Shown here: positions 1-5,769 of the stretch, in pieces | Numbering within the stretch: the first letter of the stretch is position 1 | How the letters are laid out: each line of letters starts with the position of its first letter | IMG/VR virus record: IMGVR_UViG_2534681649_000004 | DNA: 8,155 nt | Source: a virus | Lineage: Duplodnaviria > Heunggongvirae > Uroviricota > Caudoviricetes | Direction: 5' to 3' (one strand) | Translations under genes and position numbers: made by a program | The notes under the pieces: generated by a model | The model's input: the letters and a program-made list of their open reading frames with translations, nothing else | What the model was told of the DNA's origin: nothing | Database searches by the model: none

Positions 1-16
1 CGAAGAAATGTCGTCT

Positions 17-43
17 TGAGGTGTACTGGCAATAGCGGACACT
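17..43. repeat. IS600-like terminal inverted repeat (orfB-proximal end)
   Basis: TGAGGTGTACTGGCAATAGCGGACACT; pairs with the reverse complement of 1254..1280 (TGAGGTAGCCTGAGTTTAACGGACACT), sharing the TGAGGT terminus and the CGGACACT inner block. Confidence 0.55.
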
Positions 44-59
44 ACCATTTGTTCTTTTT

Positions 60-878
60 TTAAGCAGCCATCTGATGATATTTTTCCCTGAAGGCTGCCG
101 GGGAGATATTCCCCAGACGAGAGTGACGACGCTGACGATTGTAGAAAATCTCAATGTATTCCCGTATTACTGAGATGGCTTCATCCCGGTTATTAAAACG
201 ATAGTGGCTCAGGCTCTCATTTTTCAGCGTTCCCCAGAAGCTTTCCATCGGAGCGTTGTCGTAACAGTGACCTTTACGCGACATTGATGTTTTCAGACCA
301 GACTGCTCCTGTATGACCCGGTAATCGTATGCGCAGTACTGTGAACCTCGATCAGAGTGGTGGATTAGCCCGGCAGGTGGGCGCTGGCTCCTGAGCGCCA
401 TAAACAGGGCTTTACCTGTCAGCTCTTTTGTCATGCGCTCTCCCATGGCGTAGCCGACAATTTCGCACGTATAAACATCTTTGATGCCAGCGAGGTACAA
501 CCATCCCTCCTGTGTGGCAACATACGTCAGGTCCGCCACCCAGACCTGATTTGGTGCTGTAGGAGCGAACGTCTGGTTCAGCAGATTTGGCGCAACTGGC
601 AGATTGTGGTTCGGGTTCGTAGTCGCTCTGAACTTGCGTTTCTGCTTACAGCGTAGCCTTAGCTCCTTACGAAGACGTGCCAGTCGGTCACGACCAACGA
701 TGATGCCATTCTCTGCCAGCTCCGTCTGGAGCCGCCGGGTTCCATATGTTTCGCGAGTGCGGATATGTGCCACCTTAATCTCCAGTTTTAGCCGCTCATC
801 ACTTTGTTTTCTGTCTGAGGGTTCATGCTGTACCCAGTTGTAATAACCGCTCCTGGATACACCAAATACCTGACACAT
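60..878 (-). CDS. IS3-family transposase OrfB (DDE integrase catalytic domain), IS600-like; expressed in vivo as an OrfAB fusion by -1 frameshifting
   Basis: 272-aa ORF with DDE-type motifs (VWVADLTYV, HHSDRGSQY, CYDNAPMESFWGTLKNE). Sits in the -1 frame relative to orfA (codon phase checked by hand). Stop codon TAA at 60..62. Confidence 0.9.
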   Translation of the reverse strand: MCQVFGVSRSGYYNWVQHEPSDRKQSDERLKLEIKVAHIRTRETYGTRRLQTELAENGIIVGRDRLARLRKELRLRCKQKRKFRATTNPNHNLPVAPNLLNQTFAPTAPNQVWVADLTYVATQEGWLYLAGIKDVYTCEIVGYAMGERMTKELTGKALFMALRSQRPPAGLIHHSDRGSQYCAYDYRVIQEQSGLKTSMSRKGHCYDNAPMESFWGTLKNESLSHYRFNNRDEAISVIREYIEIFYNRQRRHSRLGNISPAAFREKYHQMAA

Positions 879-913
879 CGCTTCAATGGGAAATTGTTGT
901 CGCCATTGTTCGA

Positions 914-1216
914 TTAACGCGTATTTTTCAGCGACTCCTGTGCAAAATACGCTGTTGCTTTTTTTAATATATCTCGCTCAAGGCGAGCTTCATTTAACGC
1001 CTTACGCAGTTGCAGAATTTCAGATTCCAGTTCAGCCACCGTGCGGGAACCAGGAGTACCGAGCCCTTTTCTGGCGGCGGTAACCCATTGTCCTAAAGTG
1101 CCTTCAGGAAGGGATAATCGGGAAGCGCCTTCACTGATCGAAAGTTGATTTTCAAGAACCGTTCTGACAGTTTCGGCTTTGAACTCTTTAGAGTAACGTT
1201 GGTTTTTTCTGCTCAT
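914..1216 (-). CDS. IS3-family transposase OrfA (helix-turn-helix DNA-binding and leucine-zipper part), IS600-like
   Basis: 100-aa ORF MSRKNQRYSKEFKAETVRTVLENQLSISEGASRLSLPEGTLGQW..., typical IS3 OrfA. AGGAG Shine-Dalgarno about 7 nt upstream of the ATG at 1216. The ORF overlaps the slippery run. Confidence 0.9.
   Translation of the reverse strand: MSRKNQRYSKEFKAETVRTVLENQLSISEGASRLSLPEGTLGQWVTAARKGLGTPGSRTVAELESEILQLRKALNEARLERDILKKATAYFAQESLKNTR
959..965 (-). promoter_or_regulatory. Programmed -1 ribosomal frameshift slippery heptamer (A_AAA_AAA then G) between orfA and orfB
   Basis: T7 run on the plus strand at 959..965 is A7 on the coding strand, read TTA AAA AAA GCA (L K K A) in the orfA frame. 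A -1 slip enters the orfB frame (phase confirmed). Analogous to the A AAA AAG motif of IS911/IS3. Confidence 0.55.
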
Positions 1217-1253
1217 TATTAGCTCCTTCTGATGCCATTCTATTTCAGGAAGG

Positions 1254-1280
1254 AGTGTCCGTTAAACTCAGGCTACCTCA
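1254..1280. repeat. IS600-like terminal inverted repeat (orfA-proximal end)
   Basis: Reverse complement TGAGGTAGCCTGAGTTTAACGGACACT matches 17..43 at 19/27 positions; element ends in ...CA as expected for the IS3 family. Confidence 0.55.
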
Positions 1281-1456
1281 GTGTGCCAGAGGGGCGTATG
1301 TATCTGTCCAGAATCAGTGAGGCCATCAGTTTGTCTGCTGGTGAAGTGGCCCACCGGTTAATCGTCCCTTCATCGGATATTGACCTGGGGGAGACCGAGC
1401 TTCCGGTGCTCGGCGAGATCACCTGGCAGGCTTATGACCCGGCAAGGAGTAAATAA
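1281..1456 (+). pseudogene. 3' fragment of a phage baseplate J-like (Mu gp47/P2 gpJ-like) gene truncated by the IS600-like insertion
   Basis: Frame open from the IS boundary with no start codon (VPEGRMYLSRISEAISLSAGEVAHRLIVPSSDIDLGETELPVLGEITWQAYDPARSK*). Its stop overlaps the next gene's ATG (TAATG at 1454..1458), implying translational coupling in a baseplate operon. Identity is inferred from synteny only. Confidence 0.45.
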
Positions 1457-2046
1457 TGGATTCGTTACAGGATGATTATACAAAGCTGCTGTACGGACTG
1501 ATGCAGCCGGGGCCTGCATGGTCAGATACCGACGGTGTACTTGACGGTCTGGCACCATCGCTTGTGCGTGTTCACCAGCGGGCTGATGAACTGGTGATTG
1601 AAATCGATCCCGGTCAGTCCACAGAGCTGATTGAACGTTATGAAGAATTGTATGGTTTACCTGATTCCTGTTCCCCTGTCGGAACCCAGACATTACGCCA
1701 GCGTCAGCAACGTCTTGAAGCAAAAGCCAATGTGGCTGGTGGCATAAATGAGCAGTTCTTCCTGGATCAGCTTGAGGCGCTGGGATATACCGGCGTAACG
1801 ATCGAACAGTTCCAGCACCTGGATGCAAGCCCCGATCCGGAATGGGGAGATCGCTGGCGTTATTTCTGGCGTGTGACGTTGCCGGTGGATGCCGGTGCTC
1901 AGTGGCAGACATGCACGGACGCCTGCAACACACCGATCCGGACGTGGGGGGATACGGTTGCGGAGTGCGTGATTAATAAATTATGTCCGTCACACACCGT
2001 CGTTTTATTTTCCTATCCAGATGAGGATGAAGATGCACAGGATTGA
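1456..2046 (+). CDS. Phage tail/baseplate protein, YmfQ/Mu gp48-like (DUF2313-type)
   Basis: 196-aa ORF. Position between a baseplate J-like gene and the tail fibre gene matches Mu (47-48-S-U) and e14 (ymfP-ymfQ-stf-tfa) order. Family assignment from memory; start overlaps the upstream stop. Confidence 0.75.
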   Translation: MDSLQDDYTKLLYGLMQPGPAWSDTDGVLDGLAPSLVRVHQRADELVIEIDPGQSTELIERYEELYGLPDSCSPVGTQTLRQRQQRLEAKANVAGGINEQFFLDQLEALGYTGVTIEQFQHLDASPDPEWGDRWRYFWRVTLPVDAGAQWQTCTDACNTPIRTWGDTVAECVINKLCPSHTVVLFSYPDEDEDAQD

Positions 2047-3240
2047 TACGCTGACTGCGGTAAAAGATAAGTTTGGTCCGGGTAAGAACGGATTTACTGA
2101 CGGAAATCTTCGCACAGGACGTCTTGCTACCTGGCTGAACAGTGCCATGTGGAATGCCATTCAGGAGGAAATCTGTGGTGTCATTGAGAAGGCCGGGATA
2201 GAACTGAATAAAGAAGAACACGACCAGCTATATAAGGCTATATTATTGCTGGTGGGCGGTGCAATTAACGAAGAGGCATTGCTGATAAAAAATAACCTTT
2301 CGGATGTGGAAGACAGGGATGAGGCTGTTGAAAACCTCGGATTAAAACCCACGGTGGATAAGGCAAAAAATGCCGTTCAGCGTGATGGCGACACCATGAC
2401 CGGAGAGCTGAAAATCCGTGGTGTTAATGCGCTGAGGATTTTCAACGAAGCTTTTGGCCTGATTTTTCGTCGTTCGGAAGAGTGCCTGCACCTTATTCCC
2501 ACCAGTGAAGGTCAGGGGGAAAATGGCGATATTGGTCCCCTGCGCCCGTTCACCATTAATCTGCGGACGGGTGAAATATCCATGTCGCATAAAGTGTCTG
2601 TTGGCGGTGGTTCGCAGGTCAATGGTGCGCTGGGTATCGGCGTTCAGAACGCCCTGGGGGGAATTCAATTGCTTTCGGGGATAACGATACAGGTATAAAA
2701 CAAAACGGCGACGGCATTCTGGATGTTTATGCGAATGGACAGCATGTATTTCGTTTCCAGAATGGTGTGGCGATAGCGTTAAAAAATATTCAGGCCGGAA
2801 ATGCTAAAAAATTCACGTTATCCAGCGCCAACAACTCCACGAAAAATGCAGCGTTTTATTTGTGGGGTAATCCATCCAGGCCTGTTGTTGCAGAGCTTGG
2901 TGATGATTCCGGCTGGCATTTCTACAGCCAGAGAAATACCGATGGTAGTATCACATTCGCTGTAAACGGACAGGTAATTCCGTTAAATTACGGAAACTTC
3001 GATGCCCGCTATAAACATCGAACTGAGGGGGTACAGGATGTGCGGTATGGTTATGAAATGTATTACAACCCTGGCAGCAACACCGTTTCATGGACGTTTC
3101 GCTCACCTTCGGGACACGGGTTGTCAGGGATATCGATATCGGATACCGGCCGTAACTCAGCGGATAACGTCAACGGTGTGTATTACCGACCGCTGCAAAA
3201 ACTGATTAATGGCATCTGGTATAACGTAGCGAGTATTTAA
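2033..3240 (+). pseudogene. Tail fibre gene (Mu S / e14 Stf type) split by a 1-nt frame offset in a G6 tract; N-terminal segment 2033..2698, C-terminal segment from about 2662 to 3240
   Basis: N-terminal frame (MHRIDTLTAVKDKF...VQNALGG, likely start ATG 2033 after GAGGA at 2023..2027; the track's 2021 start is in the same frame) stops at 2696..2698. The other frame is open from 2593 and encodes NSIAFGDNDTGIKQNGDGILDVYANGQHVFRFQNGVAIALKNIQAGN...RPLQKLINGIWYNVASI, the conserved C-terminal block of lambda Stf/T4 gp37-type fibres. The two join seamlessly at the G run 2656..2661 if one more nucleotide is present. Confidence 0.75.
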
Positions 3241-3242
3241 CA

Positions 3243-3788
3243 ATGTTGCATTTAAAAAATATTACGGCAGGTAATCCGAAAACCGCGGAACAATATCAGC
3301 TGACAAAACAGTATGATGTCACCTGGCTTTTTTCGGAAGACGGCAAAAACTGGTATGAAGAACAGAAGAACTTTGCCAGTGACACCATAAAAATGGTTTA
3401 CACCGGAGACGGGCGCGTGGTGTGGGTCGGTAAGGATGTGACAGGCATTGAACCCCGTAACGCCAGTGTTATTGAAGTTCCTGATATTACCGCCAACCGC
3501 CGCATTACCGCGCCGGGTTACTGGTTTTACCGCAATGATGAATTTGTCTTTGACTACAGACTCAAAGCGGAAGATGAGCGTGATGCCCTTCTGGCTCAGG
3601 TCAGTGCCCGGACAGGGGAATGGGAAGAAGACCTGCTGCTGGGGCTAATCAGCGACGAAGACCGGGAAAAACTGAAAGCGTACCGTATTTACGCGAAATC
3701 GCTGCAGGCGATGGATTTCAGCGCCATCACTGATAAATCCTCATACAACGCCATTGAATGGCCCGTCTCTCCGGAAGGTTCTTCCTGA
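3243..3788 (+). CDS. Tail fibre assembly protein (Tfa / Mu U / P2 G family chaperone)
   Basis: 181-aa ORF starting MLHLKNITAGNPKTAEQYQLTKQYDVTWLFSEDGKNWYEEQKNF, the characteristic Tfa N-terminus. Starts 2 nt after the fibre gene stop. Confidence 0.85.
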   Translation: MLHLKNITAGNPKTAEQYQLTKQYDVTWLFSEDGKNWYEEQKNFASDTIKMVYTGDGRVVWVGKDVTGIEPRNASVIEVPDITANRRITAPGYWFYRNDEFVFDYRLKAEDERDALLAQVSARTGEWEEDLLLGLISDEDREKLKAYRIYAKSLQAMDFSAITDKSSYNAIEWPVSPEGSS

Positions 3789-3811
3789 TTTAATTTATCG
3801 CGAGAAAAACT

Positions 3812-5080
3812 ATGTCTGTAGTGATATCAGGTGCGCTGACTGATGGCGCAGGCATCCCCATGTCCGGATGCCAGATTATTCTGAAATCCCGTGTAAACAC
3901 CTCAGAAGTGGTGATGCGTACCAGGGCTGATGTAGTGACCGGAAATAACGGTGAATATTCGTTTGAGGCACAGGTCGGAAAATATTGCGTGTATCTGAAA
4001 CGGGACTGGCGCGACGAGTACTGTGTTGGCGACATTGCTGTATACGACGACTCAAAGCCCGGCACGCTGAATGACTTTCTGACTGCCCCCGATGAAGGCG
4101 ACCTGAAGCCGGATGTCGTCAAACGCTTTGAGGAAATGGTGGCGCAGGCGCAGCAGAGCGCCGGGGCCGCAGCCGGAAACGCACAGCAGACGGCGCAGGA
4201 TGTGGCGGCAGCCGCAGGTTATGCCCGCGCAGCAGAACAGGCCAAAAATGACATTGATGCTGCGCTGACCGGCACTCTGAAAATGGCTAACCATCTGTCA
4301 GAAATCGCAGCAGCAGGCGAAAAGGCACAACAGAAGTCCCGGGATAATCTGGGGCTGAAAAGTGCGGCCACGATGGAAGCACAGAGCGACATTTACGACC
4401 GGACAAAAGGCCGTCTGGCGATACCCGGCGCATTCGGCTTTGGGTGTGCTTTTCTGCCTGAAGATGTTATCCGTTTTGACACTAAGAGTGATTTCCTGGC
4501 CTGGGTAAGGAATGCGCTGCCAGGTGAATATTCCGTTGCTGGCCCCTACGACATCATCATACCCGACACACGGTTTGAAGGGGTGCTCAGCATCCGGTGG
4601 ACTGATGCACGCCCTGAGACAACAGAACCGCGGTACAGAGCCAAATCCCTTACTTTTTACGGCATTAACGGCCCCATTTATCACACCCGCTACTGCTACT
4701 GGCCCATATCCAGACTGACTGGCTGGGTGAAAATAAATATAACCACAGAAGATATTATTTACAGAATCGTGGCGAGCTCTGTCCGCAACAGATGGGGAGA
4801 CCCTGACATTGGCGGGCTGATTATTGCTGCGTACCAGGGAGAAGCTGACGGTGATAAAGTCATCAGACTTGTCAGGGGGCAGTCATACAGAGGCTCACGA
4901 CTGGGACCGGTGGGGATTTCAGTGCCCAGTACTCCCACCGGAACGTATATAGCATCCCCACAATTTTTCATTACGGGATGTTCAGAGCATTCATTACCGG
5001 GGTCATATTGCGCCCTGTCCGGGGGGCCGGATGCACATGTCTCTGGCGCAATGCCCGGGCTTTTTATTCGCACATCGTGA
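3812..5080 (+). CDS. Second tail fibre protein: lambdoid side-tail-fibre-type N-terminal domain, Ala/Gln-rich linker, and a C-terminal domain I cannot place
   Basis: 422-aa ORF. N-terminus MSVVISGALTDGAGIPMSGCQIILKSRVNTSEVVMRT...VYDDSKPGTLNDFL resembles the prophage tail fibre N-terminal domain of StfR/lambda Stf (from memory), followed by AQAQQSAGAAAGNAQQTAQDVAAAAGYARAAEQAK and an NLGLK motif. The C-terminal roughly 230 aa are Cys- and aromatic-rich with no family I recognise. Confidence 0.75.
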   Translation: MSVVISGALTDGAGIPMSGCQIILKSRVNTSEVVMRTRADVVTGNNGEYSFEAQVGKYCVYLKRDWRDEYCVGDIAVYDDSKPGTLNDFLTAPDEGDLKPDVVKRFEEMVAQAQQSAGAAAGNAQQTAQDVAAAAGYARAAEQAKNDIDAALTGTLKMANHLSEIAAAGEKAQQKSRDNLGLKSAATMEAQSDIYDRTKGRLAIPGAFGFGCAFLPEDVIRFDTKSDFLAWVRNALPGEYSVAGPYDIIIPDTRFEGVLSIRWTDARPETTEPRYRAKSLTFYGINGPIYHTRYCYWPISRLTGWVKINITTEDIIYRIVASSVRNRWGDPDIGGLIIAAYQGEADGDKVIRLVRGQSYRGSRLGPVGISVPSTPTGTYIASPQFFITGCSEHSLPGSYCALSGGPDAHVSGAMPGLFIRTS

Positions 5081-5083
5081 GGA

Positions 5084-5653
5084 ATGCACCGTGGAAATTA
5101 AAAAATCATTAATCCCCGTTATACCGAAAGTGGCGCAGTAGACTGTGACGTTTTTTTTGACGACAGGGACCAGGCAGTCCCCTACACAGCCACCGCTGAT
5201 GATGTCGCTCCGACGGGTCAGCAAATCTGGCAGGAACTGCAAAGCGGCAAATGGGGTGAGATAGCCCCATTCACTGTGACACCAGAAATGCTGGAAGCGG
5301 CCAGAGAGGCCAGACGTCAGGAAATTGAAGCATGGCGCGCAGAACAGGAGGCGAAGCCGTTCACGTTTGAATGGAACGGTCGTATCTGGAATGCTGGTCC
5401 CGACTCACTGGGCCGCCTGTCCCCGGTAGTCATGCTGGCAAAATCTGTCACAGCACAAACACATATGGCGTGGAGCGATGCCGATAATCAGCAGGTGAAA
5501 CTGTCGATGCCGGAACTGGAAGAACTGGCGGCAGCAATGGTGCAGGCGCAGGTCGATCGCAACGATGAGATTTATCGCCGTCAGCGTGAAATGAAAGAGG
5601 AGCTGAGCGGTCTGGATGATTTGGCTTCAATTCGGGCGTTTGACGTTGAGTAA
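5084..5653 (+). pseudogene. Tail fibre assembly/chaperone-like gene (DUF4376-like C-terminus) with an in-frame TAA at codon 6; alternatively a shorter CDS from GTG 5276
   Basis: ATG 5084 follows GAGG (5079..5082) overlapping the upstream stop, reads MHRGN then TAA (5099..5101). The same frame then runs open for 184 codons to 5653 with no ATG/GTG/TTG before GTG 5276. C-terminal sequence (FEWNGRIWNAGPDSLGRLSPVVMLAKSV...KLSMPELEELAAAMVQAQVDRNDEIYRRQ) resembles phage tail-fibre chaperone domains, from memory. Confidence 0.5.
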
Positions 5654-5769
5654 TGAATAAGCCGCAACTGGCGGAATCACAGAAGACCGCTTTGCTTACC
5701 GAAGCGGAGTCTGTCATCCGGCCGCGGGGGCGTGCTGTCAGGCTGAACAGGGAAACGGATGAATCCGGG

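Follow-up and report, generated by a model that had tools for sequence, protein, structure and literature searches.

The analysed stretch of DNA, in the following called the window, has a length of 8,155 nucleotides and carries a prophage remnant between two insertion sequences. Sixteen nucleotides of left flank are followed by a complete copy of IS600 (IS3 family; positions 17..1280, minus strand). The inverted-repeat scan and nucleotide matches defined an extent of 1264 bp, and the element has TG...CA termini, reading TGAGGTG from position 17 and closing with CCTCA at position 1280. Its terminal inverted repeats, located at the OrfB-proximal end (17..43) and the OrfA-proximal end (1254..1280), are imperfect: the arms of 27 nt each are 70 % complementary. 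Both reading frames are open on the minus strand. OrfA (914..1216, 100 aa) matched HTH_Tnp_1 (PF01527), and OrfB (60..878, 272 aa) matched HTH_21 (PF13276) and the rve integrase core (PF00665). An A6G slippery motif for a predicted -1 frameshift, AAAAAAG, was read at 958-964 within the overlap of OrfA and OrfB; in E. coli copies of IS600 the OrfAB fusion is annotated as a programmed frameshift. For the best of thousands of matching E. coli records, annotated as IS3-like element IS600 family transposase, the identity to positions 17..1280 was 99.1-99.7 %. In length, termini, imperfect repeats and OrfA/OrfB with the A6G site, the copy corresponds to the known IS600 of Shigella and E. coli (IS3 family, IS3 group). 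Judged by these features the element is complete and apparently functional, and it probably remains active.

The prophage section to the right of IS600 begins with the 3' remnant of a baseplate J/gp47 gene (1281..1456, plus strand). The tail-fibre module that survives has as its first intact gene one for a Mu gp48-like baseplate protein (1456..2046, plus strand; PF10076, Phage_Mu_Gp48, E=4.8e-24); annotations in E. coli assign it to the YmfQ family. Further genes of a phiP27-like prophage, for tail fibres, tail-fibre assembly and DUF4376, follow on the same strand (2021..5654). Some of them are frameshifted, and the frameshift-specific stubs of DUF4376 measure 125 and 121 aa. The opposite strand carries ipaH (5833..7476), the right-end cargo of the prophage, encoding a type III secretion effector of 547 aa with leucine-rich repeats and a NEL E3 ubiquitin ligase domain (PF12468/PF14496); the records of relatives name it IpaHe. 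The left end of an IS1 (7861..8155, plus strand; about 98 % identity to IS1 family transposase records) is inserted in a methyltransferase gene. With this IS1 the 6.58-kb remnant ends on the right: the alignment of all related loci stops at position 7860, and the IS1 junction at 7861 was absent from every locus fetched and is private to the window.

The tail module is closest to that of phiP27 (NC_003356.1), an Stx2e-converting lambdoid phage whose contractile tail is Mu-like, with 89.5 % identity to positions 1281-5624 over 61 % of the query. Intact E. coli relatives of the remnant share the phiP27 order of lambdoid early region, P27-family terminase and Mu-like tail, whereas the window retains only the last 6.6 kb and has ipaH and the methyltransferase gene instead of stx as right-end cargo. 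The sequence-only reading had suggested a comparison to an e14- or Mu-like baseplate operon. The Mu-type tail families (PF10076, PF04865) are indeed present, but the prophage is phiP27-like and neither e14 nor Mu. The cryptic prophage e14 (jayE/ymfQ) likewise has baseplate J and YmfQ/Mu-gp48 families beside tail-fibre genes; this likeness is confined to the level of protein families, whereas the near-identical intact relatives at tRNA-Ser/mtfA-zinT are full phiP27-like prophages. The remnant in the window is dead as a virus and not able to form virions, with the tail-fibre genes and ipaH kept.

The baseplate J gene is truncated. Position 1281 of the window corresponds to nucleotide 908 of the intact gene in E. 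coli FDAARGOS_944 (locus L001, 8094..9176; 1083 nt, 360 aa; PF04865, E=1.6e-54). Thus the 5' 907 nt are missing, and the last 176 of the 1083 nt, aligned to L001 9001..9176, remain as 57 codons plus stop. The 57-aa fragment alone had no Pfam match at E<=0.01; a precomputed match assigns it to Baseplate_J_C (PF26079). Over positions 1281-3800 the window is 99.8 % identical to the FDAARGOS_944 locus, and the homology to the intact gene stops exactly at 1280/1281, where the reference reads …TTACGGGATG/GTGTGCCAGAGG (slashes mark breakpoints or junctions throughout). The abrupt begin of the baseplate frame at the IS boundary, seen already from the sequence alone, was hereby confirmed; the conclusion drawn from it, an IS600 situated within the gene, does not hold literally, for the other part of the gene is absent from the far side of IS600.

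Shigella loci were gathered by looking up the proteins encoded in the window (YmfQ, IpaH and the DUF4376 stubs) in public complete and draft assemblies. Seventeen fetched loci from 11 Shigella assemblies presented the right junction, CTCAGGCTACCTCA/GTGTGCCAGAGG, base for base as in the window, while 5,426 complete E. coli genomes yielded no occurrence. Among the Shigella genomes returned was CP000036.1, which we take to be S. boydii Sb227. In 10 of the 11 assemblies, the junction IS600 has as left neighbour the DUF968 gene of this phiP27-like prophage, which is truncated behind codon 252 of 352 and obtains its stop codon from the TGA of the IS terminus. In the remaining assembly, the complete genome CP162048.1 (L007), the left neighbour was the end of metG. 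Together with the IS66 remnant in the window, discussed below, three left flanks are thus combined with one right junction. Such a pattern, constant on the right and variable on the left, is characteristic of homologous recombination of one IS600 copy with another.

In E. coli FDAARGOS_944 and A31, the DUF968 and baseplate J genes are collinear and equally oriented in one intact element, integrated between tRNA-Ser/mtfA and zinT. The gene order of this prophage is int, exo, dicB, cI/cro-like, ydaT, DUF977, hokD, DUF968, rusA, Q, tRNAs, lysis and HNH; after these come P27-type terminase, portal, protease, capsid, sheath, tube, tape measure, baseplate, J, YmfQ and tail fibres. On these references the common Shigella breakpoints lie at …GGCTCAG/TATCTCC in DUF968 and at …GGGATG/GTGTGCC in baseplate J. 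The sequence-only reading had proposed to measure a deletion on an intact operon. This comparison gave a distance of 23,127 bp in FDAARGOS_944, which after subtraction of two ISEc60 insertions (about 1.3 kb each) corresponds to a loss of about 20.5 kb of phage DNA, and a distance of about 22.9 kb in A31. Lost were rusA, Q, the tRNAs and the lysis genes, and further the head and most of the tail (terminase, portal, capsid, sheath, tube, tape measure and baseplate hub genes). As judged by this comparison, an IS600-associated loss of about 20-23 kb of upstream prophage genes occurred in an ancestral Shigella state. The IS-mediated deletion of upstream prophage genes that had been suspected from the window is therefore correct for the ancestral event, the loss from DUF968 to J in 10 of the 11 assemblies, but not for the window itself, whose own left flank is not prophage DNA. 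A scar with a single IS between non-adjacent segments of one element is found in the ancestral state, not at the window's left flank.

Target duplications are missing in both states. In the window, the triplet left of IS600 is TCT (14-16) and the triplet to the right is GTG (1281-1283); the flank positions and the lack of a visible duplication given in the sequence-only reading were exact, and no 3-4 bp repeat is present at the mapped ends. The ancestral junction from DUF968 over IS600 to J has CAG opposed to GTG, also without duplication. A positive control was needed because mismatched triplets would be obtained from random sequence alone. Five control IS600 copies at other fetched loci (two from E. 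coli 08_4358, two from FDAARGOS_943, one from S. boydii Sb227) had each a length of 1264 bp and perfect 3-bp duplications: AAT, GTC, GTC, AAC and GCA. The missing duplication in the window is consequently a real anomaly and not a mapping error, and unlike the controls the window copy has hybrid flanks. Two IS600 matches that seemed to share the window's left flank turned out on inspection to be chance partial similarities and were used as duplication controls. The 3-bp duplication defines the event of simple insertion rather than IS600 itself; its absence marks a rearrangement after insertion.

The origin of the left flank was traced with its 16 nucleotides (1..16, plus strand), which end with GTCGTCT and match exactly a piece of an IS66-family transposase (TnpC) remnant, an assignment on 16 nt only. 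A scan of species-representative genomes (596 Gb) with the bare 16-mer revealed the exact sequence with an identical context of 120 nt on both sides in S. flexneri SFBU1023 (L068) and E. coli ECMA0423 (L069). By our own calculation, about 0.002 chance occurrences of a 16-mer are expected per 5-Mb genome. Other matches, in unrelated phyla and in Scandinavium (L094), were attributed to chance; only the two former are meaningful. The ORF of 93 aa around the 16-mer in SFBU1023 matched DDE_Tnp_IS66 (PF03050, E=6e-21), and in E. coli O104:H4 the ORF at this place is annotated as a partial IS66 family transposase. The island in E. coli O104:H4 C227-11 has the order tRNA-Phe, integrase, AAA-domain protein, IS remnants, IS66 remnant, TraF remnant and sigA. 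The left flank can thus, on statistically strong grounds, be assigned to the IS66-family transposase remnant of the sigA (SHI-1-like) island at tRNA-Phe, not to the prophage. On the map of E. coli K-12, more than 1 Mb separates the tRNA-Phe genes from zinT. As related IS66 copies could exist elsewhere, the chromosomal origin of the flank is probable rather than proven.

The empty site in the IS66 remnant reads …GTCGTCT/GGGAGATG…, and 521 bp beyond it lies, in the same orientation, a left-end fragment of IS600 of 216 bp with 100 % identity to positions 17-232 of the window. IS600 has therefore visited this island before, and the island is a real target area of the element. Queries with chimeric junctions detected IS600 exactly at the TCT site of the IS66 remnant in no E. 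coli genome. Apparent matches to a full-length IS600 in IS66 consisted of two pieces 520-720 bp apart and were due to the nearby fragment. The 16-mer was absent from the 8.5 kb left of IS600 in every relative and from the full intact prophages, and a local deletion extending from the ancestral junction to the left was accordingly rejected as source of the flank.

These observations are best explained, with a probability of about 75 %, if the IS600 in the window is a copy with hybrid flanks which resulted from two successive IS600-associated events in a decaying, ipaH-carrying phiP27-like prophage. The first event, older and common to many Shigella genomes, would have removed the prophage section from codon 252 of DUF968, in the nin region, to nucleotide 907 of the J gene and left one IS600 behind. 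Comparison with the intact elements shows this deletion. The likeliest route would be homologous recombination between two directly oriented IS600 copies, one at CAG in DUF968 and the other at GTG in J; after such a two-copy event, the remaining IS600 is flanked on the left by the duplication triplet of one copy and on the right by that of the other. A search of 5,426 E. coli genomes yielded neither of the precursor junctions predicted for it, GGGATGGTG/TGAGGTGTAC and GCTACCTCA/CAGTATCTCC; with Shigella searched non-exhaustively, this is weak negative evidence. As these genomes contained no intermediates with a single insertion, the two-copy route and an IS-promoted adjacent deletion, the alternative for the first event, are indistinguishable.

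A left flank that is not prophage DNA requires a second, lineage-specific exchange of IS600 by IS600. In the lineage of the window, the junction IS600 would have recombined with an IS600 copy at TCT in the IS66 remnant, exchanging the left flank and leaving the right junction untouched. The left flank is swapped; the crossover presumably took place within the IS and may have been part of an inversion or of a translocation. This history predicts more of the IS66 TnpC remnant (…GAACACACGTTAT) and genes of the sigA island left of the window. It also predicts a reciprocal hybrid elsewhere, with the left flank …CCGGAATCTCCGGCTCAG from DUF968 and the right flank TCTGGGAGATGCGTTCC from the IS66 remnant past the TCT duplication. 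The reciprocal junction would be expected as DUF968/IS600/TCTGGGAG..., with TCTGGGAGATG as right flank.

The alleles of the element fit such an exchange weakly. The window copy has G739 and A944, the general IS600 consensus. In its closest relatives (L006, L009, L013, L014 and L148) the junction IS600 has A739 and G944; where measured, 2-3 substitutions over 6.6-7.8 kb separate these relatives from the window. This pattern would be obtained if another copy had replaced the left 928 bp or more, with a crossover right of position 944. The argument is based on two positions, both of which vary too in copies that keep the DUF968 flank (L005 and L012), and gene conversion is an alternative to crossover for the origin of the alleles.

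In Shigella, recombination between insertion sequences is reported as a cause of inversions as well as deletions (Seferbekova et al. 2021, PMC8072062), and recombination of IS600 with IS600 was proposed for a deletion of about 23 kb in the tra region of pINV (Michelacci et al. 2020, PMC7283534). The published cases of IS-IS recombination in Shigella have the same signature, one IS at the scar with flanks from two sites and a deletion of tens of kilobases, and there, as here, different strains have different partners at one IS. Distinct in the present case are the target, a chromosomal remnant of a phiP27-like ipaH prophage, and the superposition of two events. As far as PMC8072062 and PMC7283534 were searched, the junction is not described in them.

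Among the other explanations, an assembly artefact is unlikely. It would have joined the 16 nt falsely to IS600 through identical copies of the element, the true neighbour being DUF968. IS600 was matched at up to 43 places per E. coli genome, a favourable situation for such a misjoin. The exact left junction of 30 nt was furthermore absent from the genome representatives, viral contigs and metagenome contigs scanned as well as from all fetched Shigella loci, and the IS1 junction at 7861 is unique as well. However, the scanned collections contain few Shigella genomes, thus the absence is weak evidence. The metG flank at the same junction in CP162048.1 speaks for genuine flank swapping at this place, and the window IS600 differs in its alleles from the copy at the ancestral junction.

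Very improbable is an origin in a single step, by intramolecular transposition of an IS600 resident in the IS66 remnant, or by a deletion or inversion which this IS600 promoted next to itself, directly into baseplate J. Such an event would leave no target duplication, as observed. IS3-family elements transpose by a copy-out/paste-in mechanism via a circular intermediate and do not normally generate adjacent deletions, which argues against this origin. Moreover, the junction of IS600 to GTGTGCC is common to the 11 other assemblies, 10 of them with DUF968 as left flank; the right junction therefore predates the left flank of the window, and a second, independent insertion that hit this very nucleotide with equal orientation is very unlikely. 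A simple insertion into baseplate J, whose duplication would be imprecise or mutated and which would place the 5' part of the gene just left of the window, has nothing in its favour beyond the position of the IS at a gene fragment and is refuted, since the left 16 nt (CGAAGAAATGTCGTCT) mismatch the …CTGATGTTACGGGATG[GTG] of the intact gene and were absent, even with two mismatches allowed, from the whole 20.5-kb reference locus; the left flank hence does not continue the baseplate gene, in accordance with the sequence-only reading.

Rearrangement driven by IS600 is ordinary in Shigella and already known, and the two successive events reveal no new mechanism. Their value lies in annotation and comparative genomics: the IS600 scar explains the death of the prophage, the baseplate J stub that has no partner, and a break of synteny between Shigella strains. 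An IS copy without target duplication is a reliable marker of an old recombination breakpoint, and the shared junction of IS600 and baseplate J could serve as lineage marker.

The integration mechanism of ipaH was termed 'uncertain' in a published analysis (PMC8072062). If the 6.6-kb segment with tail-fibre, DUF4376 and ipaH genes between IS600 and IS1 were a mobile cassette bounded by insertion sequences, this would account for chromosomal ipaH at several unrelated Shigella loci. We consider such a cassette quite improbable; as hints in this direction, modules of tail_N, DUF4376 and ipaH were present at several loci per genome and often adjoined IS600.

The tail module of the window has decayed by frameshift in addition to IS action. 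Its tail-fibre gene (region 2021-3240) is present as two ORFs, 2021..2698 and 2767..3240, vs. a single ORF of 402 amino acids in the counterpart of E. coli FDAARGOS_944 (9753..10961 of locus L001). The DUF4376 gene (5031-5654) carries a 1-bp deletion near position ~5100 relative to the closest relatives, the Shigella loci L006, L009 and L012-L014, which shortens the protein from 207 amino acids to an ORF of 125 amino acids (5276..5653). Several Shigella assemblies also have a DUF4376 product of 125 amino acids annotated at other loci linked to ipaH. The EIEC-like strain FDAARGOS_944 represents an earlier stage of the same prophage decay. In its otherwise intact prophage (L001/L136), ISEc60 has inserted twice, into the genes for the tail sheath and the portal, and the terminase, Q and ipaHe genes are frameshifted.

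Downstream of ipaH, the class I SAM-dependent methyltransferase gene of the window contains the left end of an IS1 copy (7861-8155, starting GGTAATGCTGCCAACTTACTG...). At the position matching window 7861, IS1 was absent from all fetched relatives. With IS1 starting at 7861, the 6.58-kb prophage remnant is therefore flanked by IS600 and IS1 in the window strain. The IS600 copy abutting the truncated baseplate J gene is itself interrupted in one relative, locus L011 (7249-9404, assembly CP160647.1), by 1308 bp inserted between the positions equivalent to window 864 and 860. A transposase of the IS3 family with 404 amino acids was called in this insertion, thus an IS is nested within the junction IS600. 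A left-end fragment of IS600, 216 bp long and with 100% identity to window 17-232, is located in the sigA/tRNA-Phe island, where 521 bp separate it from the sequence that corresponds to the left flank of the window. The fragment is conserved between E. coli O104:H4 (L159, 14025-14240) and S. flexneri (L068, 2025-2240, reverse strand).

Individual Shigella genomes contain a module of tail-fibre N-terminal domain, DUF4376 and ipaH more than once, at several distinct sites on the chromosome (loci L138, L141, L142, L144, L147 and L152-L158). Several decayed prophages seem to carry ipaH as right-end cargo. IS600 or IS1 often directly adjoins the module, sometimes an IS66-family element.
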